Virus record (IMG/VR): IMGVR_UViG_3300044630_004720
Reading direction: 5' to 3' (one strand)
Length of the DNA: 64,000 bases
Source of the DNA: a virus
Lineage: Duplodnaviria > Caudoviricetes
Below are positions 7,172 to 57,202 of the stretch, piece after piece (within the stretch, counting starts at the first letter, position 1; the number at the start of each line of letters is the position of its first letter). The notes below the pieces were generated by a model that ran no database searches, had not been told where the DNA came from, and saw only the letters and a list, made by a program, of their open reading frames with translations. A program made the position numbers and the translations under genes.

Positions 7172-8905
7172 ATGGGAGCATTATTAGAATCAGGTATGGT
7201 TGGTAACATCGGTCTTAAGCACCTTCGTGTTATCAAAGAAGATACCATCAAAAAATGGGACGAGTTGGGATTCCTTGAGGGTCTTGGCGGTCACCAAAAA
7301 GATAACATCGCACAATTATACGAAAACCAAGCATCTTACTTAATCAACGAAGCAGCAGTATCTGACGCTTCAGGTTCATTTGAGACAGTGGTTTTCCCAA
7401 TCATTCGTCGTGTTTTCTCTAAATTATTAGCAAACGATATCGTTTCTGTACAAGCAATGAACTTACCAATCGGTAAATTATTCTACTTTGTACCTAAAAT
7501 CCAAAACAGACAAAGTAACTCACTTAATGAGCACTACGCACCTTACAAGATGCCAAGTAACACTGACGCTCAAGACGCTGGTTATACTTCTGGTTTAAAC
7601 CTTTATGACCGTTTCTACGAGTCAGGTGATGGTAACAGCCCTGATACAGGATTGTTCGATTACTCTAAAGGTTCTTATTCAGGTGTAACTTTAGCAGGTG
7701 CTGCAGTTGTAGCATTCTCTAACGGTGTTGTATCTGATGTAACAAGAGCATCATTAACTGGTACTACTAAAGATTCATTAGTTGTTAAATTCTCAGGTTT
7801 CACTAAAGATGGTCAAGGTAAACTTATCGGACCTAACGGTTCTGTAATGGATACTGAAGAATTCTTAGCAGGAGCTGAAATTTTCGTTAGTGGAGCTTCT
7901 AAAAACTTCAACATCGTAACTCAGAAATACGGTAAAGGTATTATCGAGTACGGTTCAAAAGCAACTTCAGCATTCCCTGGTGGTAGATTCCAAGATGTTT
8001 GTGATGAGGAAGGTGTAATTTACATCAATGTAGATTTACAAAACTACAACGGTGCAACTACAGGTTTTACCGCATCTCAATTATCTAACACATTCCAAGC
8101 TTCAGACGTTACTTTGACTTTCAGAGTATACAATGACTTAGAATTTGAAGATGAAATCGGTGAAGTATCTTTCGATTTAGAATCTGTTACAGTTTCTGTA
8201 GTAGAAAGAAAATTAAGAGCTAGCTGGTCTCCAGAATTAGCACAAGACGTAAGTGCATTCCACAACATCGACGCTGAAGCTGAGTTAACTGCATTGTTAT
8301 CTGAGCAAATCGCGGCTGAGGTTGACCGTGAAATCTTACGTGACTTACGTAAAGGTGCCGCTTGGACAGCTAAGTGGGATTACAACGAATGGAAATACGG
8401 AAACGGTGGTTCTTCATTCGCAGGTTACACTCAAAAAGACTGGAACCAAACATTAATCACTAAGATTAATCAGATTTCAGCTCAAATCCATAAAACTACT
8501 TTGAGAGGTGGTGCTAACTGGATTATCGTATCTTCAGAAGTATCTGCAGTATTCGATGATTTAGAATATTTCCACGTATCAAACGCTCATCCTGAGCAAG
8601 ACCAATACAATATGGGTATTGAGAAAGTAGGTACATTAGCAGGTCGTTACCAAGTATATCGTGACCCTTACTTCCCAGCAAACAAAATTTTGATTGGACA
8701 CAAAGGTAAGTCATTGTTAGACGCTGGTTATGTATACGCACCATATGTTCCACTTCAATTAACTCCAACAATGTATAATCCTTTCAATATGACCCCAATT
8801 AAGGGTATTATGACTCGTTACGCTAAGAAAATGGTTAACAACCGTTACTTCGGTGTAATCACAGTGAGAGGTGTACAAACGTTCGATATGAACACATTAA
8901 GATAA
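7172..8905 (+). CDS. Major capsid protein (T4 gp23-like)
   Basis: VSVQAMNLPIGKLFY, RKLRASWSPELAQD, EIDREI-like EVDREI, YAPYVPL, GIMTRY motifs. Confidence 0.97.
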   Translation: MGALLESGMVGNIGLKHLRVIKEDTIKKWDELGFLEGLGGHQKDNIAQLYENQASYLINEAAVSDASGSFETVVFPIIRRVFSKLLANDIVSVQAMNLPIGKLFYFVPKIQNRQSNSLNEHYAPYKMPSNTDAQDAGYTSGLNLYDRFYESGDGNSPDTGLFDYSKGSYSGVTLAGAAVVAFSNGVVSDVTRASLTGTTKDSLVVKFSGFTKDGQGKLIGPNGSVMDTEEFLAGAEIFVSGASKNFNIVTQKYGKGIIEYGSKATSAFPGGRFQDVCDEEGVIYINVDLQNYNGATTGFTASQLSNTFQASDVTLTFRVYNDLEFEDEIGEVSFDLESVTVSVVERKLRASWSPELAQDVSAFHNIDAEAELTALLSEQIAAEVDREILRDLRKGAAWTAKWDYNEWKYGNGGSSFAGYTQKDWNQTLITKINQISAQIHKTTLRGGANWIIVSSEVSAVFDDLEYFHVSNAHPEQDQYNMGIEKVGTLAGRYQVYRDPYFPANKILIGHKGKSLLDAGYVYAPYVPLQLTPTMYNPFNMTPIKGIMTRYAKKMVNNRYFGVITVRGVQTFDMNTLR

Positions 8906-8925
8906 TATTTTTTATCTTATTTTAT

Positions 8926-8955
8926 AAAAACCCCCGACTATTCGGGGGTTTTTTA
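8926..8955. terminator. Intrinsic terminator after major capsid gene
   Basis: AAAAACCCCCGA-CTAT-TCGGGGGTTTTT followed by T run. Confidence 0.9.
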
Positions 8956-8967
8956 TTATGTAACAGA

Positions 8968-8975
8968 TATTTATA
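8968..8975 (+). promoter_or_regulatory. Putative late promoter TATTTATA
   Basis: Just after the terminator and upstream of 9006. Confidence 0.65.
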
Positions 8976-9005
8976 TATTATAAAATAAAAAAAAACATTT
9001 ATAAG

Positions 9006-9932
9006 ATGAAAAGAAGAGTAATTCAACTAAAAGAATCTGAACTCAAACAATTGATTTCAAGAATTATAGAAGAACAAACAGCGGCTTCGGCATTTACACA
9101 AGGTCAACAAGCTGGTCAGGTGGCGGGACAACAAGCTCGTCAGGTAGTTAATAAAGCAGCAAATCAAGCAGTGACTGCGGTTAAACAAGGCGCAAACACC
9201 GTAATTAAAGGGGTTACTGAGACAATAGTTACTTTCGCTAAAGTAACATTTAAAATTGTTGTTTATGGTGCTGCAGTTGTATTCGTAATTGGTCAATCAA
9301 TTTTTAAAGTTGGTGCGGCTATTGGAAATGCAATTATAAAATTTATAGCGTCGACAGGTCAGGCAGTTATTAAAAGTGGCCAAGCGATAGCACAAGACAC
9401 TGCGGCGGCATTTAGAAAAGCAGGTATTGCACTTGAAAAAGGAGCTCAATGGGTTGGTCAACAACTATCGGCATTAAAAGACTCAACACTTGCAGTTGGT
9501 AAATATCTCATCGACCACGCAAGGTCATTGGGAACAGCAGCATACGCTAAATTCTTAGTGGCGATGGCAGGAATAAAAGAACTTGGGACTACTTTTGGTA
9601 ACTACTTGAAAAATGGTTGGGCTAGTATCCAAAATAGTATAGGTGTGGCTTGGGAAAATGCATCTAGTTGGGCTTCAGGAATGTACAATAAAGCTAAACA
9701 AGGTCTTTCAGATGTGGGTACTGCAATAGGTAATAAAGCAAGGCAAGTGGGTACTGCAATAGGTGATAAAGCAAACCAAATAGCTCAAGGAGTGTCAAAT
9801 TTAGCCGGTAAAGCCTGGGGTGGTATTCAAGGTTTCTTACAAGAAATGTATGAAAGATATCTTTCTTTTTCTGACAATAGCAAATCAATACTTAATGAGG
9901 CCGTACACTATAACGGTAAAGTTATTTTATAA
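9006..9932 (+). CDS. Hypothetical Ala/Gly/Gln-rich amphipathic helical protein with 11-aa periodicity
   Basis: Leader MKRRVIQLKESELKQLISRIIEEQ. VGTAIGNKARQ/VGTAIGDKANQ repeat. Confidence 0.85.
   Translation: MKRRVIQLKESELKQLISRIIEEQTAASAFTQGQQAGQVAGQQARQVVNKAANQAVTAVKQGANTVIKGVTETIVTFAKVTFKIVVYGAAVVFVIGQSIFKVGAAIGNAIIKFIASTGQAVIKSGQAIAQDTAAAFRKAGIALEKGAQWVGQQLSALKDSTLAVGKYLIDHARSLGTAAYAKFLVAMAGIKELGTTFGNYLKNGWASIQNSIGVAWENASSWASGMYNKAKQGLSDVGTAIGNKARQVGTAIGDKANQIAQGVSNLAGKAWGGIQGFLQEMYERYLSFSDNSKSILNEAVHYNGKVIL
9714..9779 (+). repeat. Two tandem 33-bp copies (11-aa repeat)
   Basis: gtgggtactgcaataggtaataaagcaaggcaa / gtgggtactgcaataggtgataaagcaaaccaa. Confidence 0.9.
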
Positions 9933-9951
9933 TTTTTTCATAATACTTTTT

Positions 9952-9979
9952 AAAACCCTCGAGAAATCGGGGGTTTTTT
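9952..9979 (+). terminator. Intrinsic terminator
   Basis: AAAACCCTCGA-GAAA-TCGGGGGTTTTTT. GNRA loop and U tail. Confidence 0.9.
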
Positions 9980-9983
9980 GTTT

Positions 9984-10014: not shown

Positions 10015-10018
10015 TGCT

Positions 10019-12148: not shown

Positions 12149-13528
12149 TTATTTTTCTGATATAATTTCAAATTTCAATTCTTCTCTATAGAATATCTCT
12201 TCGGTATGTGTTTTAGCTTTTATTTCAACCCAATACTCTCTTGGTATCATATAACTTGTATCTAAAATAAACGAATTTTCATTTGTTCTGTCTAATTTAG
12301 TCCAATCAAACACATTTACTTGGGTAAGTCCTTCTTTCACATATACCCTATAATAAACCTCGTCAAATAAAACCGATTTAGGTTGATTAATTGACCTTAG
12401 AGTGACAACTACTTTTCTAAACTCTCCACGTTTAATTTTTTCGTTTAATTTAATACCAAAAAATTGAATAACGTATCTTTCTAATTCTGTTTGATTCTCA
12501 CCAATAGTGAATAGACTTGTATGTGGTTTAGGGATAAATTTTTGTTTAACGTCACTAAATGAAATACCACCTATTTCAATACCTTTCCATTTATCATAAA
12601 AGAATCTTTTACCGTCACAAAGAACACCACTAATACCAAATGTAACCTTATAAACTCCTTTACGAACTTTAGTAGTGGTGAGGTTAGATAATCCCGCAAT
12701 TGGGTTGTTTGTACTGTCTAATATATCAACTGTTGGTAAAACGTCTAAGTCGTAGAAATTAGTACCTTTTGTGACATATAAATATAGATTTCTATTGATG
12801 TCGGCAATAAAGTTTTCCCTATTGTCATCTATTTGGTCATCGAATACCGTTTCAACAAATGGTTCAAAAAATGTTTGGGTATACATTGTAAAAAATGATA
12901 CCGATTGGTCAACCTCGTTTGTAATATTTTGATATTCGGGGGCAAATGCGATACCTAATCCATAGTTAATACTTGTACCTGTTAATATGCTATTTACGTA
13001 ACTTGTAATATCTGCTTTAAAGTTTTCATTTCCATTATCAAAATGAACTTCAGCAATTGTGGTACCTGTCGGTGGGGCCGTAGAATAAACTCCCTCTTCT
13101 GTCCACTGGTCTAATGTAGTTCTATTAAACCAGTTCGACGGTCTTTGGTCAAAGGTTTCATTACCTGAAGTATAATCATAGGCTTGTTCATAATCAAACC
13201 CAACTCCCTCATCCCAAAATTCAGATACTTTGAATACGATAAGGTCAAAAGAGGTTGTTCTTTCTCTACCTGTGCCTCTTTTTACTCCTTTAAGTGACTC
13301 ATCACCAAATATGGTATTAGTTAGATTTAGGTAATGTCTTGTGTTTGAATTTAAAACAAATTCACCACTATCAACTTTCGATTTTAAATCATCTAAATTG
13401 ATTCTGAAGATATACTTAGAGAATCCCGAACCATAAAAAATCTCAGTATTTGGATTTTTTGCGGTGTTAACCTGTGAATCCTTAATTAAGGTGTTGTTTT
13501 TATTGAAATATGAACGGAAATATGACAT
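12149..13528 (-). CDS. Putative virion structural protein, 459 aa
   Basis: Beta-rich composition, late-type motif upstream, adjacent to the gp5-like gene. Confidence 0.7.
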   Translation of the reverse strand: MSYFRSYFNKNNTLIKDSQVNTAKNPNTEIFYGSGFSKYIFRINLDDLKSKVDSGEFVLNSNTRHYLNLTNTIFGDESLKGVKRGTGRERTTSFDLIVFKVSEFWDEGVGFDYEQAYDYTSGNETFDQRPSNWFNRTTLDQWTEEGVYSTAPPTGTTIAEVHFDNGNENFKADITSYVNSILTGTSINYGLGIAFAPEYQNITNEVDQSVSFFTMYTQTFFEPFVETVFDDQIDDNRENFIADINRNLYLYVTKGTNFYDLDVLPTVDILDSTNNPIAGLSNLTTTKVRKGVYKVTFGISGVLCDGKRFFYDKWKGIEIGGISFSDVKQKFIPKPHTSLFTIGENQTELERYVIQFFGIKLNEKIKRGEFRKVVVTLRSINQPKSVLFDEVYYRVYVKEGLTQVNVFDWTKLDRTNENSFILDTSYMIPREYWVEIKAKTHTEEIFYREELKFEIISEK

Positions 13529-17541: not shown

Positions 17542-18243
17542 TTATGAATTTAGAAAACCAAAAATAACACCATCGTACATTTTTCGATATTTTTTAAGAG
17601 CAACCCTTATTTCTTTAGTGTTCAGGGAGGTCATTTCTCTTAACGATAGTAATATTAAGTTTTTATTGAATTTATTACCATCACCAACTTGGAATATTCT
17701 ATCGAAGTTGCTAAAAATTTCAAGTAGGGCAAACCCTAATTTTTGTTCGTTTTCACTGAGTTCTTCAGTGTTTATAAAATCCTCTAATTGAACTGTCATC
17801 TTTATGATAACATCTTTGTAGTCTAATACCGATTCATCTATTGTATATGAATACTCGGGATTATCCTCCATATCACTAGATATGTCATCATAAGACACTG
17901 TTCTATTGTTGTCTTTGGTATCTTTCTGTATTGCGCCCATAAGGTAATTCTTACAGATGGTACCAAAATAAGAATACGCCTTATGATTCTTGGTGTGGTC
18001 GAACTTACTAATCTTAGTCATTAAAAATGACATAGTATCTGTATGTAAGTCTTCGAATTCGTAATCTTTTCTATATAATTTATAACGTCGAATAATTGAT
18101 TCGACCATTATAATCAGGGGTTCTCGTAAATATTCGTTGAATATCTTGTTTCTTTCTGCCTCATCAACACTTTCAAGGTATTTGACTACTGCCTTCTCTT
18201 GGTCCTCCCCAAAATAAATTTTTTGGGTCCTTTTTCTTGGCAT
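17542..18243 (-). CDS. Late-transcription sigma factor (T4 gp55-like)
   Basis: Sigma region-2-like MVESIIRRYKLY...KFD..KNHKAYSYFGTICKNYL, comparable to the gp55 NPFAYFT-type motif. Confidence 0.75.
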   Translation of the reverse strand: MPRKRTQKIYFGEDQEKAVVKYLESVDEAERNKIFNEYLREPLIIMVESIIRRYKLYRKDYEFEDLHTDTMSFLMTKISKFDHTKNHKAYSYFGTICKNYLMGAIQKDTKDNNRTVSYDDISSDMEDNPEYSYTIDESVLDYKDVIIKMTVQLEDFINTEELSENEQKLGFALLEIFSNFDRIFQVGDGNKFNKNLILLSLREMTSLNTKEIRVALKKYRKMYDGVIFGFLNS

Positions 18244-19031
18244 TAGCTTTCTACATAATTGACATCTCTTTTATTTTTAAAGAAAAATTCTTTCTTAGCA
18301 GTTTCAATCCAAAATTTAACTTCGTTTTCGTTTAGTTGTCCGTCTTCTCCATTTTTGTATGACCAAAAAAGTGAATCTTCTCTAAAGTTAACGTGTTGGT
18401 ATCCTGCTCTTGGAACAACCATAATTTTAACACCATTGTGTGTTAATCTTAAAAGAAATTCATATGTGAAAGTCAATTTGATATTATTTTTAAGTTTACC
18501 GTTTTCCTTAACGACTTCTGTTTTAAATAAACCACCACTAGTTTGGTAGTTTTGATATTCCATTAAAACTTCATTGTCAATAAAACCTTGGTTGTCGGTA
18601 AATCCATACGCCCAAGCAGATTCATTCGTAAAAGAAATAAATTCACCGTTTCCATTAATGTCCTTAACGATAGGTAAGAAAACATCAACTTCAGGATTAT
18701 TATGAATATATTCACCCATTGAATTAATCCAGATTGTCTTATACTCATCATCGATTTCCAAAATAGAAAACCATTCAGTATCACAATCATCGATGCCTAA
18801 GTTTATTTGACTTACAAAATCGGTTTCATTTGTTTTATTTTCTAATAATTTAACCTCCAATTTTTGACCGAAATCAAAATCTTCAAGTTTCTTTTTTACA
18901 CTTGTTGGGGAAATTACTGTTAACTTAATATCATTGTGAAAATCTTCAATTGATTCCAAAGCATTCGCTAACATCACAGACTCATCTTCCCCAATTTTAT
19001 GTATTGGTAATAAAATTGTTATTTTTTTCAT
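18243..19031 (-). CDS. Glycosyltransferase, GT-A/family 2-like
   Basis: ITILLPIH start, INLGIDDCDTEWFSILEIDD (DxD-like), YEFLLRL. Confidence 0.8.
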   Translation of the reverse strand: MKKITILLPIHKIGEDESVMLANALESIEDFHNDIKLTVISPTSVKKKLEDFDFGQKLEVKLLENKTNETDFVSQINLGIDDCDTEWFSILEIDDEYKTIWINSMGEYIHNNPEVDVFLPIVKDINGNGEFISFTNESAWAYGFTDNQGFIDNEVLMEYQNYQTSGGLFKTEVVKENGKLKNNIKLTFTYEFLLRLTHNGVKIMVVPRAGYQHVNFREDSLFWSYKNGEDGQLNENEVKFWIETAKKEFFFKNKRDVNYVES

Positions 19032-20083
19032 ACAGTTTCTTCTACTTTAAGTTTTTCAATAGCACTTTTAATTGACTCTTGTCTGATTGATATCAGTGAG
19101 TTAAAAATTGCTAAGGTGTTATTGTTGTGTGTTTCTTTGTTATATGGTAAAACAGTTTGTTTCATTTTATCTTTTACTTCTTCAGTGATTTCAACACCTT
19201 CTAACCAAGCCAAAACAAATGTACCTAATATCTCAACGATTTTATTTGAATCGTAAGTCCATAGACCATTTTCACTTAACCAATCAGGTTCAGTATTTGG
19301 TATTTTACCAATAACCGGTACACCACATTTCATAGACTCTAATGGGAATGTACCGAATGTTGATTCATCATCAACCCAAACCGATACCATACACTCTTTG
19401 AGGTTATCCGCAAATTCATCATATGACATTTGTACCATATCTCTAAAAGTTACCCATCTTAATTGTGGGTATTTAATATAAAATTCAGAAATAATTCGTC
19501 TGTGTACCAATCTGTCTCTGCAGCTGATTGCCACATATGGTTTTAATGGTTTATCCGATGGTTTAAAATTATCACCAATGAATGGTGGAATTAGATGTGA
19601 TAATGTTTCAGGAAAATATTCTTTGATATATTTTTTTGTTGATTCGGTTGTTGTGATACACTTATCGAATCCATAATCACCCCATCTACTACCAATAGGT
19701 AATGTTTCAAACATATAATCCTTTTGTTGTACCAACATCACTTTAACTGATTTAATATTGGTTAATTGTGGTAATACGTTTGAATAATGTTCAGGTACTA
19801 CTATAACATCTTCTACTTTAATTTCAACTTTATCGTCTTTAATTGAAACAACTTCGAGAGTATTATATTCTTCACCTAACCAAGACTCTACACCACCGTA
19901 GGTCTTATCCTCTACTAATATTTTAGCATTGTAACCATTTTCTTTTAAGGTTAATGCCATATCATAGATATTCTTAACTGCAGCCCTTGCGTTGTTCTTT
20001 GTGTCGTAAGTTAAAAAATATATGACGTTTTCTTTATTTTCAATCCTACCTAAAGAGGATTCTAATTTTTCAATGTTACTCAT
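19028..20083 (-). CDS. Glycosyltransferase, GT-B/family 4-like
   Basis: STFGTFPLESMKCGVPVIG matches the E-x-F-G-x-x-x-x-E-A-M-x-x-G-x-P-V signature. Confidence 0.85.
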   Translation of the reverse strand: MSNIEKLESSLGRIENKENVIYFLTYDTKNNARAAVKNIYDMALTLKENGYNAKILVEDKTYGGVESWLGEEYNTLEVVSIKDDKVEIKVEDVIVVPEHYSNVLPQLTNIKSVKVMLVQQKDYMFETLPIGSRWGDYGFDKCITTTESTKKYIKEYFPETLSHLIPPFIGDNFKPSDKPLKPYVAISCRDRLVHRRIISEFYIKYPQLRWVTFRDMVQMSYDEFADNLKECMVSVWVDDESTFGTFPLESMKCGVPVIGKIPNTEPDWLSENGLWTYDSNKIVEILGTFVLAWLEGVEITEEVKDKMKQTVLPYNKETHNNNTLAIFNSLISIRQESIKSAIEKLKVEETV

Positions 20084-20360
20084 TTTCTTCTTCTATTAAG
20101 ATGTTATTTTTTACTAATGTGTTAAATGCTAATCTGAACGATATGGTGGTATCTTTTTGTGCGAAAAGACCCATCTCTTCATCTGATTCATCGAATTCGT
20201 TAAGAACTCTTTCAAGACACATTTTTATTATTTCGTATTTAAAAATGTTTATTTCGAGCGATTCGCCCCCATCGTCATCTTTAATCGTGTTACCTGTTCT
20301 ACAAACTTCTGTAACCGTATCAAGGTCGATGTAATAATATTTTCCGAAGACTTCAACCAT
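20076..20360 (-). CDS. Hypothetical protein, 94 aa
   Basis: Intact ORF, overlaps upstream gene. Protein-like composition. Confidence 0.7.
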   Translation of the reverse strand: MVEVFGKYYYIDLDTVTEVCRTGNTIKDDDGGESLEINIFKYEIIKMCLERVLNEFDESDEEMGLFAQKDTTISFRLAFNTLVKNNILIEEENE

Positions 20361-20941
20361 AATTTATCAATTTCTATTAATTTATCAATTTCTATTCCAT
20401 TAGTAAAGTATTCGTTATACTGTGTTTTAAACTTTACTGCCGTTTTATTTTTAGGACACTTGTCTATAATATTTTTATTATCGGTAATCCATAAATCACA
20501 TTCCTTCCAAAGATTATCTATTTCAGTATCTCTTGAAAATTTTATGTTATTTGACATACACCCATTTCTTGAGAGAAAGAAAAGAGTAGCTGCTTTCGCT
20601 TTACCCAATTCATTAATACCAACTAATGTTATGTTGTGTTCTTTGTGTTCATAAATGAATTCATTAAGGTGAATGAAAGCATTTTGATAACTTTGTGTAG
20701 CGTGTCCAAAAATTTCGATTGGATAATCGATATATAAAAAATTATCATATTCTTCTTTAGATTGGAATTTATAATAATTTAAAAGATTATCATTTTGGAT
20801 TATGCTTTCTTTCCCATACTCAAAAGACTCTTGTTCATTTCCCTCTTCAATTTCAGAGTTGATGAAATAATCGTGGTAATGGTAATCGAATTTTTGAATT
20901 GTGTTTCTTAAAACCCCATCAATACTAATGTATATTTCCAT
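20249..20941 (-). CDS. HAD-fold 5'(3')-nucleotidase-like protein with degenerate motif I
   Basis: YISIDGVLRN (DxD changed to SxD), ATLFFLSRNG, DLWITD. Confidence 0.6.
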   Translation of the reverse strand: MEIYISIDGVLRNTIQKFDYHYHDYFINSEIEEGNEQESFEYGKESIIQNDNLLNYYKFQSKEEYDNFLYIDYPIEIFGHATQSYQNAFIHLNEFIYEHKEHNITLVGINELGKAKAATLFFLSRNGCMSNNIKFSRDTEIDNLWKECDLWITDNKNIIDKCPKNKTAVKFKTQYNEYFTNGIEIDKLIEIDKLWLKSSENIITSTLIRLQKFVEQVTRLKMTMGANRSK

Positions 20942-20945
20942 AATG

Positions 20946-20976
20946 AAAATATAACATAGATAGATTTATAAGTAAA
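20946..20976 (-). promoter_or_regulatory. Host-type promoter
   Basis: TTTA-N19-TATATTTT, 4 nt before ATG 20941. Confidence 0.5.
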
Positions 20977-20981
20977 CAATA

Positions 20982-21013
20982 AACCCACATTTGAAAACTA
21001 ACAAATGTGGGTT
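20982..21013 (-). terminator. 12-bp hairpin downstream of phoH
   Basis: AACCCACATTTG-8nt-CAAATGTGGGTT. A second smaller hairpin (ACTAACA/TGTTAGT) lies at 21016-21036. Confidence 0.65.
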
Positions 21014-21055
21014 ATACTAACAAATGATATGTTAGTGTGCAAAATTATGTTATCG

Positions 21056-21766
21056 TTAATCGTATCTTTCTAAGATTTCAGAAATAATTGGATTTCTAAC
21101 AATGTCTTCGGTTCCGAATTCGAACACACCAATACCTCTCACTCCTTCTAATCTTTTTTTGGCGTCGTATAATCCTGACTTTGTTTTGTCTTTAAATTTA
21201 TCTGATTGTTCTAAATCTCCTGATAAGAAAAACTTAGAATTAAAACCAATCCGTGTAAGTAATAATTTTATTTGTGCTGGCGTTGCGTTTTGTGCCTCTT
21301 CAAATACTAGAATTGTATTATCTACGTTCCAACCCCTCATATACGCTAGTGCGGCAACTTCGATAAAACCTTCATCTTTTAACCTTTCTCTCGATTCTTT
21401 ACCTATAATCTTATTTAGTAGGTAATATGAAGGGTATATGTATGGGTCTAATTTTTCTTCTAATCCACCGGGTAACGAACCGAGTTTTTCCTCAGCTTCA
21501 ACCGCGGGTCTTACAATTATAATTTTTTCATACTTATTATCTTCCTGCCATAAGAGGTCAACCGCTCTTTTCATTGCTATGTAGGATTTACCAACACCTG
21601 CGGGACCAAAACACAAGGTGATTTGATTATCACCTAATATTTTCCAGTATTCTTCTTGATTTTTTGTTAGGAATTTTTCTTTTGGTCTTTTAACTAGTTC
21701 TCTGATTCTCTCTTTATGAGTTGTTTTTTTGTCTTCTACAACTGATTTAAATTTTGGTTTCAACAA
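21056..21766 (-). CDS. phoH: PhoH-like ATPase
   Basis: GPAGVGKSY, IVRPAVE, YMRG, EEAQN, LLTRIG, GDLEQSD, DIVRNP. Confidence 0.95.
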   Translation of the reverse strand: MLKPKFKSVVEDKKTTHKERIRELVKRPKEKFLTKNQEEYWKILGDNQITLCFGPAGVGKSYIAMKRAVDLLWQEDNKYEKIIIVRPAVEAEEKLGSLPGGLEEKLDPYIYPSYYLLNKIIGKESRERLKDEGFIEVAALAYMRGWNVDNTILVFEEAQNATPAQIKLLLTRIGFNSKFFLSGDLEQSDKFKDKTKSGLYDAKKRLEGVRGIGVFEFGTEDIVRNPIISEILERYD

Positions 21767-21812
21767 GGTCTTTTTAATTTAATATAAACTATTATTTTAT
21801 GATAAATATCAT

Positions 21813-22463
21813 CTAATTACCCGTAGAACCAAATCCACCTTCACCTCTTTCGGTATTTGACAATTCATTAGACTCAACCATCCTTATCTGTGGGTAAGGT
21901 AAAATAACGATTTGAGCTCCTCTTTCACCCACGTTATATGATATACTATCCAAACCCTGTGTTTTTTTGAAAGTGGCTTGTAATTCACCTCTATAACCAC
22001 TATCAATTACTCCAACACAATTAGATAATATTAAATCTTGGTTTCTAACCGATGAACGAGGGAAAACTAATCCAACATAACCTTTAGGGATTTCCATTGC
22101 AATACCAAAACCATATGAAATACTGAAAGTGGTATTTTCTTTAATATTTGTAATTGTTAAATCCATACCCGCATCTCCGTCTTTTGAGTATGTAGGAATC
22201 ACAGCATTTGGGTCTAATTTTTTGACTTTAACGGGTACGGTGAATATTGATGAAGGGGATACTTGTTGGGGTGTTTCCATTACCCCCTTCATCATCTCTT
22301 GCTCAACATCTTTATTCAATGACGTTAAAACATTGTTCAGAGTCTGAATGAAATTATCGTTTAACATTTCATCATCCTCTAAAGACTCATCATCGACATC
22401 TTCAATTTTACTATTCAGTTCCATTAATTTACTAATGTACTCCTGAACCTTATCTTTTTCCAT
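21813..22463 (-). CDS. dut: Trimeric dUTPase with acidic N-terminal extension
   Basis: DAGMDL, PRSS, GVIDSGYRGE, AQIV, RGEGGFGSTG. Confidence 0.95.
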   Translation of the reverse strand: MEKDKVQEYISKLMELNSKIEDVDDESLEDDEMLNDNFIQTLNNVLTSLNKDVEQEMMKGVMETPQQVSPSSIFTVPVKVKKLDPNAVIPTYSKDGDAGMDLTITNIKENTTFSISYGFGIAMEIPKGYVGLVFPRSSVRNQDLILSNCVGVIDSGYRGELQATFKKTQGLDSISYNVGERGAQIVILPYPQIRMVESNELSNTERGEGGFGSTGN

Positions 22464-22464
22464 A

Positions 22465-22683
22465 CTATTGGGTTACTCTTTTTTCTGAAATCCACTTATC
22501 TAATGCCTTAATTCTTTTTTTAAGGTCTTCATCTTGAGGTCTCAAACAAATCTCAACGAATAAATCGGTGATTCTTACTAATTCCTCTAATGTAACTGAT
22601 ACACCTACAGATTGAACGTACTCCAAAGCCATTTTGCTTTGTGATTGACGCATAATTTGTATTTCACGACTGTAGAATTCCAT
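22465..22683 (-). CDS. Hypothetical protein, 72 aa
   Basis: Intact ORF in tight operon. Confidence 0.7.
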   Translation of the reverse strand: MEFYSREIQIMRQSQSKMALEYVQSVGVSVTLEELVRITDLFVEICLRPQDEDLKKRIKALDKWISEKRVTQ

Positions 22684-22694
22684 TTTTTTTATGT

Positions 22695-22928
22695 TTATGA
22701 TTTATAATATTCTGGTGTGTTTTTTTCGTCGATTACACATTCAATCGGCATTTTAACTACACTCAAACTTTCACTACCGCGGATATCACCTGCTCGGTAT
22801 TTTCCTGCAACAAGAGTTGCTTCTTCAACTGATTCTGCTTGAAGGACGTATTTTACTTTTTTAATACGTGGGTTACCTTCTCTGTCCATTTGTTCGGTTT
22901 CATAACCGATAGTTACTAAATAATACAT
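22695..22928 (-). CDS. Small protein resembling DUF4494 (Bacteroidota-associated)
   Basis: YYLVTIGYE...G..KKVK..YVLQAESVEEA pattern, recalled family resemblance only. Confidence 0.55.
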   Translation of the reverse strand: MYYLVTIGYETEQMDREGNPRIKKVKYVLQAESVEEATLVAGKYRAGDIRGSESLSVVKMPIECVIDEKNTPEYYKS

Positions 22929-22939
22929 AATTGTTGTTT

Positions 22940-24166
22940 TTATTTGTTAATAATTGATTTGAAAAATTCTGCTCGTGTGTTATTGACAACTCTTAATGAA
23001 TATCTGTCTTTAACTGTTTCATATAGTCGATTACCCAAGTCTTCAATCATATTTGGATTTTCGATTAATCTTTTCATATGTTTAGCCCAATCTTTGTGAT
23101 TTCTTCTTGTGTTAACGAGTAAGGCATTTCCTTTACTATTGAACTTACCTTCATCAACCGCATTTACTAAATCAATAAGATAAGGATTACATTCACTTGC
23201 AATTAATGCTTTTTTATGAAATCCTGCTTCAATTGCTTTTAATTGTGATTTATTTGAATTAAACTCACTGTCAACAAGTGGAGCTATCGAAACATCAAAT
23301 GTATTATAATTTAATGCATATTTTGAAATTTCTTTAGTCCATCTTCTTCTGTATGGTTTATTAGTATCATCGTATTGTTCGTCTTTGAATGTTAGAAGAA
23401 AATTTTTATAATCTTCGTCTAATGATTTATAATCATCAGTAAACATTCTTTCGTATTGATACCAAACAGTTTCTGTCGGTGTTATGGGTCTTTCAGTAAC
23501 TTTACCTTGAGCGTCCATTTGTTTTACTGTACCTCTTAAATCGAAACCACATAAAACAAATTGTGTTGAATCTTTATAAGCAGCAAGTGTAGATGAAATT
23601 CCGCTCTTAGCCAATTCCAAATCGTGAAAGTGGGATGAACCACCTAACCAACCAAAACGAATTTTATCTGATTTTTCAACATTCGATTTGTATTGGCTTT
23701 CATTTTCATCTATTGCGTTTGGAAAAACAACAATGTTTTTTAATCCGATTTTTTTTGCTATTGTATCTCTGAAAACACTTGTTGTTGTTGAAACATAGTC
23801 GGCAGCTCTTAGTAGTTGTACCTTCTTTTTATTTGTTTCCGTTTTTATAATTGACTGATACATAGGGTGTCTATGGTCAGGAGTCCAAAAATCATCAATG
23901 TCCACAATTACCTTAACTCCCTTGTTTTTTAACCATTCGATTCTCGATAAGTTTTTTTCAAAGGGAACTTTGTTGTGTATAAAACTATGTAAAACAACTA
24001 CATCATAGCCATCAAACTCAGAATCATTATCTTCAACATTGTATTTGATATCAATATGGAAATCATTAGGGTAAGTTTCTTGTAAGTGGGTGTATGGACC
24101 CATAACCCTGAATTTACCAACACCATATTGGTCTGAGGGAATAGCTAATATTTTAATTTTTGACAT
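22940..24166 (-). CDS. Glycosyltransferase, GT-B fold
   Basis: DIDDFW, ADYVSTTT, VFPNAID, RFGWLGGSSHFHDL, DVSIAPL..SEFN..KSQLKAIEAG. Confidence 0.9.
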   Translation of the reverse strand: MSKIKILAIPSDQYGVGKFRVMGPYTHLQETYPNDFHIDIKYNVEDNDSEFDGYDVVVLHSFIHNKVPFEKNLSRIEWLKNKGVKVIVDIDDFWTPDHRHPMYQSIIKTETNKKKVQLLRAADYVSTTTSVFRDTIAKKIGLKNIVVFPNAIDENESQYKSNVEKSDKIRFGWLGGSSHFHDLELAKSGISSTLAAYKDSTQFVLCGFDLRGTVKQMDAQGKVTERPITPTETVWYQYERMFTDDYKSLDEDYKNFLLTFKDEQYDDTNKPYRRRWTKEISKYALNYNTFDVSIAPLVDSEFNSNKSQLKAIEAGFHKKALIASECNPYLIDLVNAVDEGKFNSKGNALLVNTRRNHKDWAKHMKRLIENPNMIEDLGNRLYETVKDRYSLRVVNNTRAEFFKSIINK

Positions 24167-27682: not shown

Positions 27683-29128
27683 ATGAATACCCAAAATATT
27701 TTAAAGTTTTACGGTTCGAAGTTAGATATCAGGTTAGATAGCTCTGAATTTTATGATTATGAGGTTACAAAAACAGAAAATGACTATAATTCAGACGTTT
27801 TAGACCTGTCAACATCCATAACATATACCGCATTAACCATAAATGAGTCGTTAAATGGTTTTGGGTGTTCAAGAAACACTATCAAATTAACTGAATACGA
27901 TAATAGGACTAATGACCCGTCTTATATATATTCGGGGTTGTCAGCGACGGTTACATATTCTTCCTTCGTCAATCATATATCCTCAACATATCAACATACT
28001 ATATTAAATGATGATGTGTATGAATATGAGGGATTAACAGGAGAGACCCACTACTTTACTATAACGGCTTTTAATCAAGCTTTAAGTATTCATACAGGAT
28101 TTACCGCCACAAATGAAACAGATTTAATTTTAGGATTTGTTTCGGGAACTACATCAATTGAAAAATGTGAAGGTAGATTAGATTCTCCGTCGTATTGTTG
28201 TCCGTTTCCGCCAAAATTAAGTAATAAACCTTGGGCTTATCAATTTATTGACCCCATTGTTAATAGTTGTAGTCCATTTATCAAAAGGAGAACAGAAAAG
28301 GGTTGGACTCTTGACTTTATTTTTAATAGGGAAAGTTTACCTTGGTCATCTGGTGGAGTTTTTTATTACTTTGGAACCCGTGGCTCTTCCAATATAGATG
28401 ATTACGCAGATAATAATTTATCTTTTGGGTTTACTTCAGACAGAAGAATAAGGTGGACGGCTATCAGATATTCGGGAGAATGTGTTAACAACGCCTATAC
28501 CGAAAGTTATTATGTTGATTCAGACCAAACAGTTCCATTATGTACAACAGGAACCACCAAAGACTTCAACGTTACTATTGTATTCGACAGATACAAAAGA
28601 TATACTGAATGTAATTTGGAAAACGATGGCGGATGGAATGATTTATTAGGTTGGAGAATTGATGAGTATAGTGAAAGTGGGACCACATCCACTCAGTTGG
28701 TAACATATGACGCAGAAAACGAAGAATTAAATAAAAAATGGGCAGACGAGAGAGAACGAAGATTGGGTGTTTTAAAAATATACCTTAATGGTCGACCAAT
28801 TTACAAAAAAGAGAATTGGGAAGAGGTTGTTCCTTCAAAAAGAGGAGTACAACCATTTATACAATCTTGGGGTGGTGGTACAGGTTTAATGACTCATCAC
28901 GACGGTGTTTGTTGTTTTAATATGAAAACAATCAAGTATTATGAAGAACCGTTAGATTTTGTCCACGTTAGACATAATTTTTTAACGAGATTAAATCAAT
29001 ATGATTTCTTTATTTGTGGATTAAATTGTGAAGATGATGTTTACACCATTGAGGGTGGTCATATTATAAATCAAAATGGTGAAATCATAACAAGTAGCGA
29101 TGGTACACACATACTATATAGAACATAA
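27683..29128 (+). CDS. Putative virion structural protein, 481 aa, possible lectin/LamG-like beta domain
   Basis: Late motif 5 nt upstream. GWTLDF...VFYYFG...LKIYLNG pattern. Thr/Ser/Gly-rich. Confidence 0.65.
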   Translation: MNTQNILKFYGSKLDIRLDSSEFYDYEVTKTENDYNSDVLDLSTSITYTALTINESLNGFGCSRNTIKLTEYDNRTNDPSYIYSGLSATVTYSSFVNHISSTYQHTILNDDVYEYEGLTGETHYFTITAFNQALSIHTGFTATNETDLILGFVSGTTSIEKCEGRLDSPSYCCPFPPKLSNKPWAYQFIDPIVNSCSPFIKRRTEKGWTLDFIFNRESLPWSSGGVFYYFGTRGSSNIDDYADNNLSFGFTSDRRIRWTAIRYSGECVNNAYTESYYVDSDQTVPLCTTGTTKDFNVTIVFDRYKRYTECNLENDGGWNDLLGWRIDEYSESGTTSTQLVTYDAENEELNKKWADERERRLGVLKIYLNGRPIYKKENWEEVVPSKRGVQPFIQSWGGGTGLMTHHDGVCCFNMKTIKYYEEPLDFVHVRHNFLTRLNQYDFFICGLNCEDDVYTIEGGHIINQNGEIITSSDGTHILYRT

Positions 29129-29146: not shown

Positions 29147-30232
29147 ATGGCAGAAAATAAACTAATATCAGAACTATCAGGAATAACAAACCCAAGTCTT
29201 ACGGGGTATACCGTTTATGATGACGGAATAACCACCTACAGAATGGCTTTAGGTGAATTAGTGGCATACGTAACAGCCGAGGAAGGTGATTTTGCAACTA
29301 CGGGAAGTAACACATTTAACGGAAATCAAATAATTAGTGGTAGTTTAACAATTACAGGTTCCGTAACTGCCAATTCGTTTGTAGGTAATGGTAGTGGATT
29401 GACAAATTTACCGTTATCACATTTAACAACAACATCATCGTTTAACACATTTACGGGTAATACAATGTCAATGTTTAGTAGTTTGACCCCTGTTTTAAAT
29501 GATATACAAACATCAACAAGTTCTTTAAATTCATTTACCAGTAGTATTAATACTAAAACAGGTTCATTTGCAACCACTGGCTCAAATACATTTTTAGGTA
29601 GCCAAACCATAAAAGACGCCGTTATTATCGGTCCGAGTGGTAGTAGACACACCAATAATCCTGAAATGTTACACGTCCAAAATAGTGGAAGTTTTAATAT
29701 TGCACATCTTCAAGGTAATGTTGACAATTATTTTCAACTTAATATAAAGAATGAAAGTTCTGCCGCGGGAGCAAGTACTGACTTTGTTGCAACTGCTGAT
29801 AATGGTACTGAAAATTTACATTATGTTAATATGGGTATCAACTCAAGTGGTTTTCTTACACCGTTTTCAGTTGGTTATCAAAATGATGCGTACCTAATTA
29901 ACAGAGGTAGAGATTTATATATTGGTTCTTTGGATGGTCCGGATTATGACCATACTCACGTTCATTTATTTTCTTCTAATAGTTGGCAGAATCCACAGAT
30001 TAGTATTATAAGTGAAGGAAAGATAGGATTTAACACAGGTTCTGTAACAACAGGATACACATATGAATTTAGTGGTAGTGTTAAATTAAATAATAATTTA
30101 AAAACGGATGGATTTACAATATTAACAAATGTAACCTCAAGTTTTACAAATGACGCGGCGGCCGCGGCTGGTGGTGTACCATTACAAGGACTATATAGAA
30201 GTGGTAGTTACGTTTTAATTAGATTAACATAA
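29147..30232 (+). CDS. Tail fiber-like protein
   Basis: Two FATTGSNTF.G.Q.I repeats around a coiled segment. C-terminal DAAAAAGGVPLQGLYRSG motif. Confidence 0.7.
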   Translation: MAENKLISELSGITNPSLTGYTVYDDGITTYRMALGELVAYVTAEEGDFATTGSNTFNGNQIISGSLTITGSVTANSFVGNGSGLTNLPLSHLTTTSSFNTFTGNTMSMFSSLTPVLNDIQTSTSSLNSFTSSINTKTGSFATTGSNTFLGSQTIKDAVIIGPSGSRHTNNPEMLHVQNSGSFNIAHLQGNVDNYFQLNIKNESSAAGASTDFVATADNGTENLHYVNMGINSSGFLTPFSVGYQNDAYLINRGRDLYIGSLDGPDYDHTHVHLFSSNSWQNPQISIISEGKIGFNTGSVTTGYTYEFSGSVKLNNNLKTDGFTILTNVTSSFTNDAAAAAGGVPLQGLYRSGSYVLIRLT

Positions 30233-39586: not shown

Positions 39587-42421
39587 ATGGCAAATTCAAA
39601 CAAAGTATTCGTATCTCCGGGTGTGTACACATCAGAGAAGGATTTAACATTTGTTGCACAGAGTGTCGGAGTAACAACATTGGGTTTAGCAGGTGAAACC
39701 TTGAAAGGTCCTGCAGAAGAACCCGTTTTGATTACCAATTTTGACGAATTCAAAACTTATTTCGGCCCAACATCTCCAGAAAAATTTGGGAATGGGAATC
39801 CGAAATACGAATTGGCATATGTAGCAAAGGCTTATTTACAAGAATCAAATCAACTATTCGTAACAAGAGTACTTGGACTTACGGGTTATAAACCCAATAA
39901 AACATTTGGTATCAAAACTATCGCAGGCGTAACCTTCGATTCAGATTCAACTCCTGTTGAAACTAGTGGTACTTTAATCTCTACCGTTACAGGTGTAACA
40001 GGTAGTACATTCTTTGCAGACTTATCAGGAAAAACAGCAACAACAGGAGATAGTGTTACTGATTTCATCGTAGAGGGAGTGTATTCTAATAATGAGTGGT
40101 TTACAATTGGTTTGGTACCTGAAGATGACACCGCTTTATTATCTGGTGACCAAATTGCAGGACCTATCGGTTCATACACTAACCAAAATTGGTATAACTA
40201 TTTCTACACAACTAGTGGTGGTGGAACTGTGAATGGTTTATATTCATATTTGTTTGTATACTCAGCATCAACATCAACTTTTGTTGTGACAAGATACAAT
40301 TACACAGGTGCAACCACAAATAATTTTGGTGACATTACCGTAGCGGCATTAAGACCAAGAGGTTCATATTCAACTGAAGTGTTGAATTTAGAAACAACAT
40401 CAAATTCTGCTTTCATTGTTACATCAGATACGTTAACAACCAATCCACTGAGTGAATTCACAATTAACGTTACAGGTGCTACAAGTGGAGCTAAAGAATT
40501 TACTTGTTCATTAGATACAACATCATCAAAATACATTACTAAGGTAATTGGATTGGATGTGTTCGATAAAAAAGCAGACGAAATTCCTGTTTATGTTCAC
40601 GAAGTATACCCTACTTTAATTAAGAAGTTATGGGAAAGAGGTGAAATACGTGGTTTAAGTCTTTCTGAGGTATATCATTCAGTTGGTGAAGATTTCTTAA
40701 CTGATTGGGATACACCGGCATCACCAATGGTGGTTTCTGAAGTTCGTGGTGGTAAGGTATCTGATTTATTCCAAGTGTTTACCGTATCAGATGGTAACTC
40801 AGCAAATACTGAAGTTAAAATTACTATTCTAAATGTGGACTTAGATACTACTGAATTTGATGTACTTGTTCGTGATTTCTACGATACTGACGATAATATG
40901 GTAGTATTGGAGAAATTTACAAGATGTACTATGGATTCAACTTTACCTGGCTACGTAGCAAGAAAAATTGGTACTGTAGATGGTGAATACGAATTACGTT
41001 CAAAGTATATTATGTTAACAATGGCGGAAGAACATCCTGAAGATGCAATCCCTGCTGGATTTAAAGGTTTTGTTACTGATTCATTATCAGGAACTACCTT
41101 GGGTGATGTTAAATACAAAACATCATTCTTAGAAGCTGGTGAAGCAACAGGAACATTCACTACATCAGGAGAACCTGTTTTAGCCGCACAAGCTGACAAA
41201 TTCAAGAAAGTATCATTAGGTATCTCATCTCAAATAGGTCTTGATACCGATTTATTAAAATATAAGGGTAAAAATCCTGACAAAGTAACCGTAGGATTCC
41301 ACTTATCAACAAACGCATCAAGTATTACAGGTAATACAATTACAGGTAAAGCATTTGAATGTACTCCATATGATTTGGAGGGTGTAAATAAGGGTAAGTT
41401 AGAATCTATTAACTTCCGTAAGTTTACTTTCGCAGTATGTGGTGGTTTTGATGGTTGGGATATCTACAGAAGTTCAAGAACTAACACTGACGGATATGTT
41501 TTTGGTAAAAGAACATATGTAAGTGGACATACAACTAACAGTGGTGTGTTTAGTTCAACTGTAGGTAACTCAGACTATTACGCTTACTTAAGAGGTATCG
41601 AATCGTACTCAAACCCTGAGGCTGTAGATATTAACATATTTGCAACACCTGGTATTAACTTTAAGGACCACAATTCTTTGGTTACACAGGCGATTGATAT
41701 AGTTGAAAACGATAGAGCTGACTCTCTTTATATCATAAACGCTCCAAATGTATCAACTTCGGACGAAATTGTTGATGATTTGGATATGGCGAATTTGGAT
41801 ACTAACTATTCAGCAACCTATTGGCCTTGGATTCAAGTTAGAGATAACGATAACTCTACTCAACTTTGGTTACCACCAACAGGAGAAGTAGTGAAGAACA
41901 TCGCTTTAACTGACAACGTATCTTATCCTTGGTTCGCAGTAGCTGGTTATTCAAGAGGTTTGGTAAACTCTATCAAAGCATATAAGAAGTTAACTCTTGA
42001 TGAAAGAGATACATTATATAAGAACAGAATTAACCCAATTGCAACTTTCTCTGACACTGGTACTATTATTTGGGGTAACAAAACCCTTCAGGTTAGAGAA
42101 TCTGCACTTGATAGAATTAACGTAAGAAGATTATTATTAAGAGCAAGAAAGTTAATTTCAGCAGTTGCTGTAAGATTGTTGTTCGAACAAAACGATGAAC
42201 AAGTAAGACAAGAGTTCTTAAGGTTGGTAAATCCAATTTTAGAAGCAATTAAAAAGGAAAGAGGTTTATATGACTTCCGTGTAACAGTATCAAATGACCC
42301 AGAGGACATCGATGCAAATACACTTAGAGGTAAAATTTACATCAAACCTACTCGCTCACTTGAATTTATCGATGTTGAATTCATTATTACACCAACAGGT
42401 GCTTCGTTTGAAAACATCTAA
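39587..42421 (+). CDS. Tail sheath protein (T4 gp18-like)
   Basis: VSPGVYTSEKD, PWFAVAGYSRG, RINPI, WGNKTL, SALDRINVRRLL, LFEQND, IKPTRSLEFI. Confidence 0.97.
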   Translation: MANSNKVFVSPGVYTSEKDLTFVAQSVGVTTLGLAGETLKGPAEEPVLITNFDEFKTYFGPTSPEKFGNGNPKYELAYVAKAYLQESNQLFVTRVLGLTGYKPNKTFGIKTIAGVTFDSDSTPVETSGTLISTVTGVTGSTFFADLSGKTATTGDSVTDFIVEGVYSNNEWFTIGLVPEDDTALLSGDQIAGPIGSYTNQNWYNYFYTTSGGGTVNGLYSYLFVYSASTSTFVVTRYNYTGATTNNFGDITVAALRPRGSYSTEVLNLETTSNSAFIVTSDTLTTNPLSEFTINVTGATSGAKEFTCSLDTTSSKYITKVIGLDVFDKKADEIPVYVHEVYPTLIKKLWERGEIRGLSLSEVYHSVGEDFLTDWDTPASPMVVSEVRGGKVSDLFQVFTVSDGNSANTEVKITILNVDLDTTEFDVLVRDFYDTDDNMVVLEKFTRCTMDSTLPGYVARKIGTVDGEYELRSKYIMLTMAEEHPEDAIPAGFKGFVTDSLSGTTLGDVKYKTSFLEAGEATGTFTTSGEPVLAAQADKFKKVSLGISSQIGLDTDLLKYKGKNPDKVTVGFHLSTNASSITGNTITGKAFECTPYDLEGVNKGKLESINFRKFTFAVCGGFDGWDIYRSSRTNTDGYVFGKRTYVSGHTTNSGVFSSTVGNSDYYAYLRGIESYSNPEAVDINIFATPGINFKDHNSLVTQAIDIVENDRADSLYIINAPNVSTSDEIVDDLDMANLDTNYSATYWPWIQVRDNDNSTQLWLPPTGEVVKNIALTDNVSYPWFAVAGYSRGLVNSIKAYKKLTLDERDTLYKNRINPIATFSDTGTIIWGNKTLQVRESALDRINVRRLLLRARKLISAVAVRLLFEQNDEQVRQEFLRLVNPILEAIKKERGLYDFRVTVSNDPEDIDANTLRGKIYIKPTRSLEFIDVEFIITPTGASFENI

Positions 42422-42758: not shown

Positions 42759-43247
42759 ATGGCAGATTTATTAATGAAAATGCCGGTTCCTTACGAACCG
42801 AAAAGACAAAACCGATTCATTTTAAGATTCCCTTCATCATTGGGTATCAATGAATGGTACGTAACATCAGCGTCTAGACCTAAGGCTACGATTGCTGAAA
42901 CAGAAATTCCGTTTTTAAATACATCAACATACGTTGCGGGTAGATTCAAATGGGAATCTATATCAGTTAAATTTAAAGACCCAATTGGTCCATCAGCCGC
43001 TCAAGCATTAATGGAGTGGTTCCGTTTACACGCGGAATCAGTAACAGGTCGTATGGGATACGCTGCTGGTTATAAAAAAGATATTGAACTTGAAATGTTA
43101 GACCCAACAGGTGTTGTGGTTGAGAAATGGATTCTTCAAGGTACATTCTTATCAGGTTTGGATTTTGGTACATTAGACTATAGCCAAGATGCGTTAGCTG
43201 ATATCACTGCAACGATGAGAATGGATAGATGTATCCTTGTATACTAA
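42759..43247 (+). CDS. Tail tube protein (T4 gp19-like)
   Basis: EPKRQNRF, AGRFKWESI.V.F.D, QALMEW, YKKDI.L..LDP.G.VVEKW.L.G.F. Confidence 0.95.
   Translation: MADLLMKMPVPYEPKRQNRFILRFPSSLGINEWYVTSASRPKATIAETEIPFLNTSTYVAGRFKWESISVKFKDPIGPSAAQALMEWFRLHAESVTGRMGYAAGYKKDIELEMLDPTGVVVEKWILQGTFLSGLDFGTLDYSQDALADITATMRMDRCILVY

Positions 43248-57202: not shown

Follow-up and report, generated by a model that had tools for sequence, protein, structure and literature searches.

The virion proteins encoded in IMG/VR virus record IMGVR_UViG_3300044630_004720 carry a short motif, Phi-[S/T]-G-x-T (Phi being a hydrophobic residue), which in them and in those of its relatives is five to eight times as frequent as expected, and from the analysis of a stretch of 64,000 nucleotides of this record (the window) and of its relatives we conclude that it is a functional short linear motif, which is specific for the lineage and whose density is selected on the outer parts of the virion proteins. 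As its function we propose, as the simplest mechanism, a cytoplasmic, sequon-directed O-glycosylation of virion subunits during or after their folding, in which a GT-A glycosyltransferase (GT) would start the glycan and an adjacent Agt-like GT-B enzyme would extend it, a proposal that we regard as evenly balanced between right and wrong. The window belongs to an AT-rich (~33% GC) myophage and covers its modules for head, neck, replication and tail, with T4-type core genes for a gp23-like major capsid protein (MCP), a gp18-like sheath, a gp19-like tube, gp32 and PhoH. Its source is an uncultured jumbo phage of an abundant freshwater lineage, whose host is predicted to be Gram-negative (Bacteroidota).

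An exact count found 38 copies of the core [ST]-G-x-T in the 5,920 amino acids (aa) of six virion proteins, all encoded on the plus strand. These are the MCP (577 aa, 7172..8905; phrog_138, 1.9e-68) with 4 copies versus 0.43 expected, a 481-aa protein of no known family (27683..29128) with 5 versus 0.65, a 361-aa fibre-like protein (29147..30232) with 5 versus 1.17, the tail sheath (944 aa, 39587..42421; phrog_23, 1.1e-63) with 8 versus 1.6 and two tail or baseplate proteins of 1598 aa (46217..51013; 5 versus 1.13) and 1959 aa (51323..57202; 11 versus 1.26). Neither of the last two matches a Pfam or PHROG family, and the labels 'hub' and 'exterior', which an earlier note on this DNA had used for them, come solely from synteny, in the case of the 1598-aa protein from its position after tube, chaperone and tape measure. 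One further copy each is found in proteins of 459, 503 and 628 aa. The per-protein counts of the earlier note (38 in about 5,900 aa) were reproduced exactly, and its conditional counts, according to which 8 of the 21 [ST]G sites of the sheath and 5 of the 9 of the 481-aa protein have Thr at +2, are exact as well; its tally of 4 copies in about 6,000 aa of named non-virion proteins had to be corrected to 5 in 7,397 aa.

Composition-preserving shuffles (5,000 replicates) gave an expectation for the six proteins of 6.25 +/- 2.45 copies when done globally, 6.89 when done within blocks of 30 aa and 7.16 within blocks of 15 aa, and no shuffle had more than 19 copies versus the 38 observed. The remaining 46 open reading frames (ORFs) of the window (14,229 aa) hold 9 copies versus 6.2 expected. 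When all 8,000 motifs of the type a-b-x-c were scanned in the six virion proteins, TGxT ranked first (21 versus 3.3, p 5e-11) and SGxT second (17 versus 3.0, p 2e-8), followed by a third motif with a p of 1e-3, and both were unremarkable in the non-virion ORFs. As this unbiased scan puts the two forms in first and second place, it answers the objection that the motif had been picked out from many possible ones, and together with the global and local shuffles it bears out the earlier claim that composition alone is insufficient. The motif is also unlike the host O-glycosylation signal D-[S/T]-[AILVMT], as had been stated before; that signal is mildly raised in the six virion proteins (31 versus 21 expected). 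N-x-[ST] is not enriched in them (61 observed versus 70.7 expected).

A series of one-position substitutions, run on the window proteins and on those of the relative G005 (324 kb, rated 97% complete), showed that only Ser or Thr at position 0, Gly at +1 and Thr at +3 are enriched. Ser at +3 is flat (5 versus 5.8 in the window, 14 versus 9.7 in G005), reversal of the motif abolishes the enrichment (9 versus 6.3 and 9 versus 11.2) and other spacings are either not enriched or far weaker, with at most 15 versus 6.3 and 31 versus 11.2. Among 297 sites the residue at -1 is hydrophobic in 205 (69%, background 34%) and hardly ever Arg, Glu, Ala or Gly. The x position accepts everything except Pro and Glu, +4 favours Phe, Ile or Ala and +5 favours Thr, Asn or Ser, so that the fuller form reads [T/N]-[L/I/V/Y/F]-[S/T]-G-x(not P/E)-T-[F/I/A]-[T/N/S]. 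The free variation at x that had been noted earlier is seen even at retained sites, as in ITGNT/ITGTT/ITGVT/ITGDT. The codons at the three fixed positions are diverse (ACA, TCA, AGT, ACC and others at position 0) and match the background usage; therefore selection acts on the protein, and a DNA-level motif such as a restriction or methylation site is ruled out. An all-against-all BLAST of the 84-aa flanks of the 38 sites gave at best 24 bits, which rules out one repeated motif-bearing domain, and the spacing of 141 aa between motifs in the 1959-aa protein is a coincidence. Nor do the sites form collagen-like G-x-T repeats, as most of them are isolated and few overlap as T-G-x-T-G-x-T. Tight clusters are frequent in the relatives, for example ...TGRTwqagyTGFTflSGSTipTGTT... 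or SGATTGAT. The residues before the motif follow a polar-hydrophobic and those after it a hydrophobic-polar pattern.

Selection holds the number of sites per protein high, while individual sites come and go. The 78 sheath orthologs carry a mean of 7.45 sites versus 1.46 expected, spread over 41 positions of which none is universal; 30 of the 41 fall into residues 118-300 and the most frequent position is occupied in 60 of 78 sequences. Permuted motifs of the same composition reach 1.0-3.9 per sheath sequence and show low occupancy. For 80 MCP orthologs the mean is 3.1 sites (permuted motifs 0.1-0.7 per sequence) over 20 positions, none of them occupied in more than 37 of the 80. The same is seen in sets of five orthologs, where the sheaths (72% identity) have 8, 7, 9, 5 and 8 sites at 20 distinct positions with none common to all five, the 1959-aa proteins (48% identity) 11, 6, 9, 8 and 5 sites at 26 positions, of which 19 are private, and the 481-aa proteins (56% identity) 5, 7, 4, 4 and 11 sites at 24 positions with 17 private ones. 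The motif is kept across orthologs of 45-80% identity, and the drift of positions with persistence of the motif, which had been predicted in the earlier note, is found in all of these sets. An enzyme with TGKT as its Walker-A motif, in contrast, keeps it in every ortholog. In a distant relative several sites lie in short loops that are inserted relative to the window protein. The sheath of G005 (G005:47836-50292, 818 aa) is without roughly residues 116-244 of the window protein, a motif-dense part of the insertions, yet it has 8 motifs. Keeping the count while the sites shift is what makes the motif resemble the sequons of glycan shields.

The location of the sites fits variable, outer parts of the particle. 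In the MCP all four (SGVT170, TGTT196, SGFT208 and TGFT297) are within a segment that varies and is rich in indels; it follows the conserved N-terminus and precedes the gp23-like C-terminal two thirds. The sheath carries about 450 aa of insertions and has its sites at residues 135, 138, 147, 240, 296, 501, 581 and 646, all outside the invariant core formed by the N-terminal 100 and the C-terminal 280 residues. Its AlphaFold2 model has a mean predicted local distance difference test (pLDDT) score of 52.8 and is confident only for residues 101-370, where the five sites are located at a strand end, in a two-residue hairpin turn or in a loop beside a helix. The tube protein (42759-43247) has no site. 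In T4 the insertions of this kind in gp18 and gp23/gp24 face outward, and by analogy to them the sites of sheath and MCP are likely exposed on the particle, as judged from secondary structure and domain variability. The 459-aa protein of the virion module (12149..13528, minus strand), with a single site in the window, contains a CBM96-like segment (residues 119-190; Pfam CBM96 3.5e-5, below the cut-off). It is a neck or head-side protein, and its homologs are rich in the motif elsewhere, as described below.

The window has hundreds of relatives in IMG/VR, with 488 matches to its MCP and at least 592 to its sheath, among them contigs of 200-324 kb. A search with the MCP found no close isolated phage among 50,697 phage records, the best matches being LR756508.1, Microcystis phage Mel-JY01 and Flavobacterium phage immuto with 33-41% identity; LR756508.1 is the closest deposited relative by MCP and sheath. 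The virion modules of all four large uncultured relatives are strongly enriched in the motif, with 102 copies versus 35 expected in G002, 121 versus 33 in G003, 52 versus 20 in G004 and 114 versus 29.6 in G005, where 72 versus 9.5 have a hydrophobic residue at -1. Individual proteins of G005 reach 14 versus 1.2 (521 aa), 12 versus 0.7 (591 aa), 11 versus 0.6 (395 aa) and 8 versus 0.6 (191 aa, G005:5543-6118). On the 60-kb contig G006 (about 20% complete; MCP 62% identical to that of the window) the MCP has 5 versus 0.69 and a 498-aa homolog of the 459-aa protein 6 versus 0.80, which makes it the most motif-rich protein there besides the MCP, while about 60 other ORFs have at most one copy each. 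The distant lineage L212 (ENA contig k141_929959, 117 kb) shows 3 versus 0.48 in the MCP, 3 versus 0.37 in a 453-aa homolog of the 459-aa protein and 2 versus 0.42 in a 611-aa protein, and the neighbouring genes are flat.

Four controls gave ratios of only 1.0-1.9. The structural region of T4 (50 kb; sheath 0, gp23 1, Hoc 1) has 11 copies versus 10.5, and LR756508.1 has 4 versus 5.3 around the MCP and 7 versus 6.6 in 60 kb of tail genes. The virion region of phi92 (25 versus 13.3) and immuto (35 versus 21.5, none in the MCP) show no strong enrichment. In unbiased scans of these four phages neither TGxT nor SGxT is among the top motifs, so the enrichment is not something that beta-rich virion proteins or AT-rich phages show in general. 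All three sampled lineages with a particular pair of GT genes (18243-20083 in the window) show the enrichment and none of the four phages without it does, a comparison which covers few and phylogenetically non-independent lineages. We therefore call the co-occurrence of motif and GT pair suggestive and no more. The pair is 41-45% identical to that of the window in G006 and 36-40% in the L212 lineage, and homologs of all three GTs of the window are missing from LR756508.1 and immuto despite their related MCPs.

The first gene of the pair encodes a GT-A (GT2-like) enzyme of 262 aa (18243..19031, minus strand), recognised by PF00535 with 26.4 bits (cut-off 23.3, E 7.8e-6). Its residues E92, D94 and D95 belong to an acidic DxD-type motif for metal and nucleotide sugar (consensus LEIDDEY) and do not vary among 32 orthologs, the most distant of which are 38% identical. 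The AlphaFold2 model (pLDDT 80, predicted template modelling score 0.80) has the Rossmann-like fold of GT-A enzymes, and its top Foldseek matches are 6p61, AvpGT, TarS, RmlT, TarP, SpsA and chondroitin polymerase with E-values of 6e-13 to 1e-9. The second gene (19028..20083, minus strand) overlaps the first and encodes a GT-B enzyme of 351 aa, which has no Pfam family and was assigned to the Agt/AmGGT family by homology to PDB entry 8xsg. As a single sequence it matches 8xsg with 6.9e-7 in phmmer, and a profile of 36 sequences does so with 8.2e-23 over 293 positions (44-336 against 25-320 of 342), followed by the next PDB match at 3e-4. 8xsg is AmGGT, the Actinobacillus minor homolog of Agt, and Agt enzymes add glucose to peptide-linked glucose (PMC12159676). 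Neither enzyme has a homolog among the 50,697 deposited phage genomes (INPHARED), and metagenomic matches to the GT-B enzyme fall into 505 clusters (50% identity) at E <= 0.001.

The two genes lie between PhoH and neck-like ORFs, about 10 kb from the MCP gene. Their synteny extends to at least eight contigs from four lineages (G002-G006 and L210-L213), with 65-81% identity in G002-G005 (66-81% for the GT-B enzyme), and the block of PhoH, small ORFs, GT-B, GT-A, a sigma-like ORF and neck ORFs of about 600 and 500 aa recurs even where the GT-B enzyme is only 35-45% identical. Within this conserved module the two GTs are the only conserved enzymes, and no kinase, ADP-ribosyltransferase or acyltransferase was recognised in it. 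Many virion genes are preceded by a late-type element TATTTATA(G) at a distance of 5-45 nt, among them those for portal, a 228-aa protein, scaffold, the 481-aa protein, fibre, tube, tape measure, the 1598-aa protein and a 408-aa GT; its positions in the window include 1796, 5111, 5874, 27670, 29136, 37542, 44233 and 46196, and the copy 13 nt upstream of the 481-aa gene reads TATTTATAG. The element looks like the late promoter of the lineage, and since the block of the GT pair lies among such genes its late expression would be plausible.

The earlier note had assigned the sequon to all enzymes of 18243-24166 and had expected the motif density to follow the phage GTs. Both ideas gain some support for the pair, with its clear Agt/AmGGT homolog and its presence in three enriched lineages and absence from four others, and none for the third enzyme, which does not track the motif. 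This GT-B-like protein of 408 aa (22940..24166, minus strand; phrog_7162, 1.3e-42) is preceded by TATTTATA at 32 nt and has homologs in phi92-like coliphages and in LR756501. In the former the motif is not strongly enriched; conversely, G006 has an enriched MCP, yet its 60-kb contig (about 20% complete) yielded no homolog, the syntenic place included, so that a part of the 408-aa GT in the system is doubtful.

Taken together, we propose that the GT-A/Agt-like GT-B pair recognises Phi-[S/T]-G-x-T as a new O-glycosylation sequon on folded beta-hairpin loops and would so build a glycan coat, able to evolve, that covers capsid, sheath, baseplate and fibres; to this detailed version we assign slightly less than an even chance. 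On these proteins the motif would be presented by the variable outer domains, where strands end or hairpins turn, and its reader would most likely be a phage enzyme made late in the cytoplasm. We infer that the motif is modified and that the modification is a sugar, and acceptor residue, starting enzyme and purpose of the coat are proposed in the same manner: GT-A (18243-19031) would recognise the site by Gly at +1 and Thr at +3 and attach a first sugar to the Ser/Thr at position 0, GT-B (19028-20083) would extend this sugar, and the assembled virion would then be coated with short O-glycans that may serve shielding, stability or adhesion.

Several observations weigh against this proposal. The structural neighbours of GT-A are generic GT2 enzymes, and a protein glycosyltransferase appears among them only as a weak GmaR match (E 0.14). 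AmGGT prefers free oligosaccharides over glycopeptides, and four residues switch this preference, namely C18-T19 and V80-M81 in ApAgt versus T15-Y16 and G78-V79 in AmGGT (PMC12159676); in the phage GT-B the first pair of these acceptor residues is outside the aligned range, and the identity is too low for a reliable placing of the second. The sites of the L212 MCP have Arg, Ala and Gly at -1 and thus no hydrophobic residue. The other 312 ORFs of G005 contain 27 copies versus 29.6 expected, which means that the motif is not avoided outside the virion. Ser/Thr-rich fibres adjoining a large GT region of G005 show no enrichment, and in the ten Ser/Thr/Gly-rich fibre-like proteins of this phage the motif is depleted (32 versus 58); the GTs of that region probably serve another target. 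The pair in question may also act in DNA or host-glycan modification. A search for the thymidylate-synthase family in G005 gave one strong match, which is compatible with modified and unmodified DNA alike. Finally, the strand-turn-strand pattern of the flanks makes a purely structural role possible.

Such a role is the content of the main alternative, in which the motif stays unmodified and forms lineage-specific exposed beta-hairpin turns, for example a Ser/Thr-capped tight turn, while the GTs are unrelated to it; the motif would then stabilise loops or provide a surface that is rich in hydroxyl groups and adheres weakly to polysaccharide. The flanks alternate between polar and hydrophobic residues like strands on either side of a turn, the sites in the confident part of the sheath model mark the ends of strands or the turns of hairpins, a Gly such as that at +1 is a typical residue of tight turns and the missing avoidance in non-virion proteins of G005 agrees with it too. 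However, other beta-rich virion proteins, such as those of T4 and the tail proteins of LR756508.1, are not enriched, and structural turns are normally conserved in position, whereas in the sheath it is the count that is kept, and not one of the 41 positions is common to all. The strict requirement for Thr but not Ser at +3 together with a free choice of Ser or Thr at 0 is hard to fit to turn geometry, and the tandem clusters (SGATTGAT; TGRT...TGFT..SGST..TGTT) resemble added cassettes. We therefore consider a structural or adhesive motif to be unlikely, if well worth keeping in mind.

A different reader of the motif seems still less probable to us. It could be the enzyme of another covalent modification (phosphorylation, acylation, ADP-ribosylation), an enzyme of the host or a partner that binds non-covalently, with shared ancestry as the reason for the co-occurrence with the GTs. 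The evidence for a linear motif is indeed silent on what reads it, and the lineages with and without it differ in many further genes. On the other side stand the two GTs as the sole conserved enzymes of a module in which none of the alternative transferases was recognised, and for a host enzyme the difference from the Bacteroidota signal described above, whose glycosylation acts outside the cytoplasm. That the motif is a functionless by-product of composition, low-complexity expansion or mutational bias is hardly credible, because despite the higher Ser, Thr and Gly content of the virion proteins, the few overlapping sites and genuine low-complexity PT and SG repeats in the relatives, its enrichment is kept under 15-aa block shuffling and across diverged orthologs, permutations of the same composition are not enriched, the codons vary and the fibres richest in these residues are depleted.

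Some neighbouring observations concern further surface chemistry in these phages. In G005 the fibre-like proteins at G005:239445-242594 and G005:282814-299601 are very rich in Ser, Thr and Gly and have 2 versus 12 and 4 versus 9.3 copies of [ST]GxT, SGxS occurs 453 times versus 87 expected genome-wide, and extra GT2 matches are located near those fibres at G005:222257-229073. This suggests a second, different class of targets. In the virion regions of G002, G003 and G004 (L106-L119) the scan is topped by Pro-Thr tracts (in G002 PTxT 238 versus 18 and TPxP 176 versus 10), which are mucin-like linkers and separate from the [ST]GxT signal. Directly before the GT pair of L212 a block (L212:1092-9655) encodes NeuB, a CTP_transf_3-like protein, a member of the GT29 sialyltransferase family, a faintly MptE/Maf-like ORF and three methyltransferases, which suggests nonulosonic-acid chemistry. 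A Maf (PF01973) transferase, the enzyme expected for a flagellin-type glycosylation with nonulosonic acid, was not found in G005, and the faint match in the L212 lineage, beside NeuB, the CMP-transferase-like ORF and GT29, is the only one. In the window a 308-aa ORF (9006-9932) directly 3' of the MCP gene has no homolog in G002-G005 despite syntenic surroundings and is likely a strain-specific insertion.

To our knowledge glycosylation of phage-particle proteins is known from a few actinobacteriophages, without a defined sequon, and full-text literature searches found no description of the motif or of a sequon-directed phage glycosylation. Freeman et al. reportedly described the O-glycosylation of mycobacteriophage virions by phage-encoded glycosyltransferases (2023, Cell Host Microbe). 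The window resembles those phages in that its GT genes adjoin structural genes and in that capsid and tail proteins would be the targets, with a glycan coat as the proposed result. As cited in PMC12619734, the mycobacteriophage glycans are carried by extensions at the C-terminus of the capsid and tail-tube subunits, with no short sequon described. In contrast, the sites of the window are internal (170-297 of 577 residues in the MCP, 135-646 of 944 in the sheath), they are missing from the tube and are scattered over insertion domains of many proteins within a strict motif of 4-5 residues; furthermore, the host is predicted to be a Gram-negative member of the Bacteroidota and the system is a prediction from sequence.

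A second system with clear parallels is the cytoplasmic NGT/Agt system of Actinobacillus and Haemophilus adhesins, which uses the N-x-S/T sequon and in which Agt extends N-linked glucose (PMC12159676). It is soluble, cytoplasmic and directed by a sequon, and it modifies large beta-rich surface proteins at many sites, all of which is also proposed for the phage system, and the 351-aa GT of the window is homologous to Agt/AmGGT and stands beside a second GT. However, the phage motif contains no Asn, so that an O-linkage would be expected in place of an N-linkage. The Agt homolog has a GT2-type GT-A as its partner, and N-x-S/T shows no enrichment; a GT41/NGT (PF13844) match was not found in the 97%-complete G005 nor among the window ORFs scanned. 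The general O-glycosylation of Bacteroidota likewise uses a short O-sequon, of three residues, on many proteins in the predicted host phylum, but with the different motif D-[S/T]-[A/I/L/V/M/T], and its pathway is periplasmic and lipid-linked. With the glycan shields of enveloped animal viruses the motif shares many alternative positions in variable surface regions, none of them fixed, and a stable count per protein, whereas those shields depend on the host ER machinery and N-linkage and the machinery proposed here is encoded by a tailed phage itself.

Even without a sugar, a lineage-specific motif of five residues is under density selection on dozens of virion proteins, and density-selected short motifs of this kind are usually missed by domain-based annotation. 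If the proposed glycosylation is true, virion glycosylation sites would be predictable from the sequence alone, and a compact cytoplasmic O-glycosylation tag together with its enzyme pair would be available for glyco-engineering. It would also mean that tailed phages evolve glycan shields as enveloped animal viruses do, and it would bear on the interactions of freshwater jumbo phages with hosts, grazers and polysaccharide matrices.

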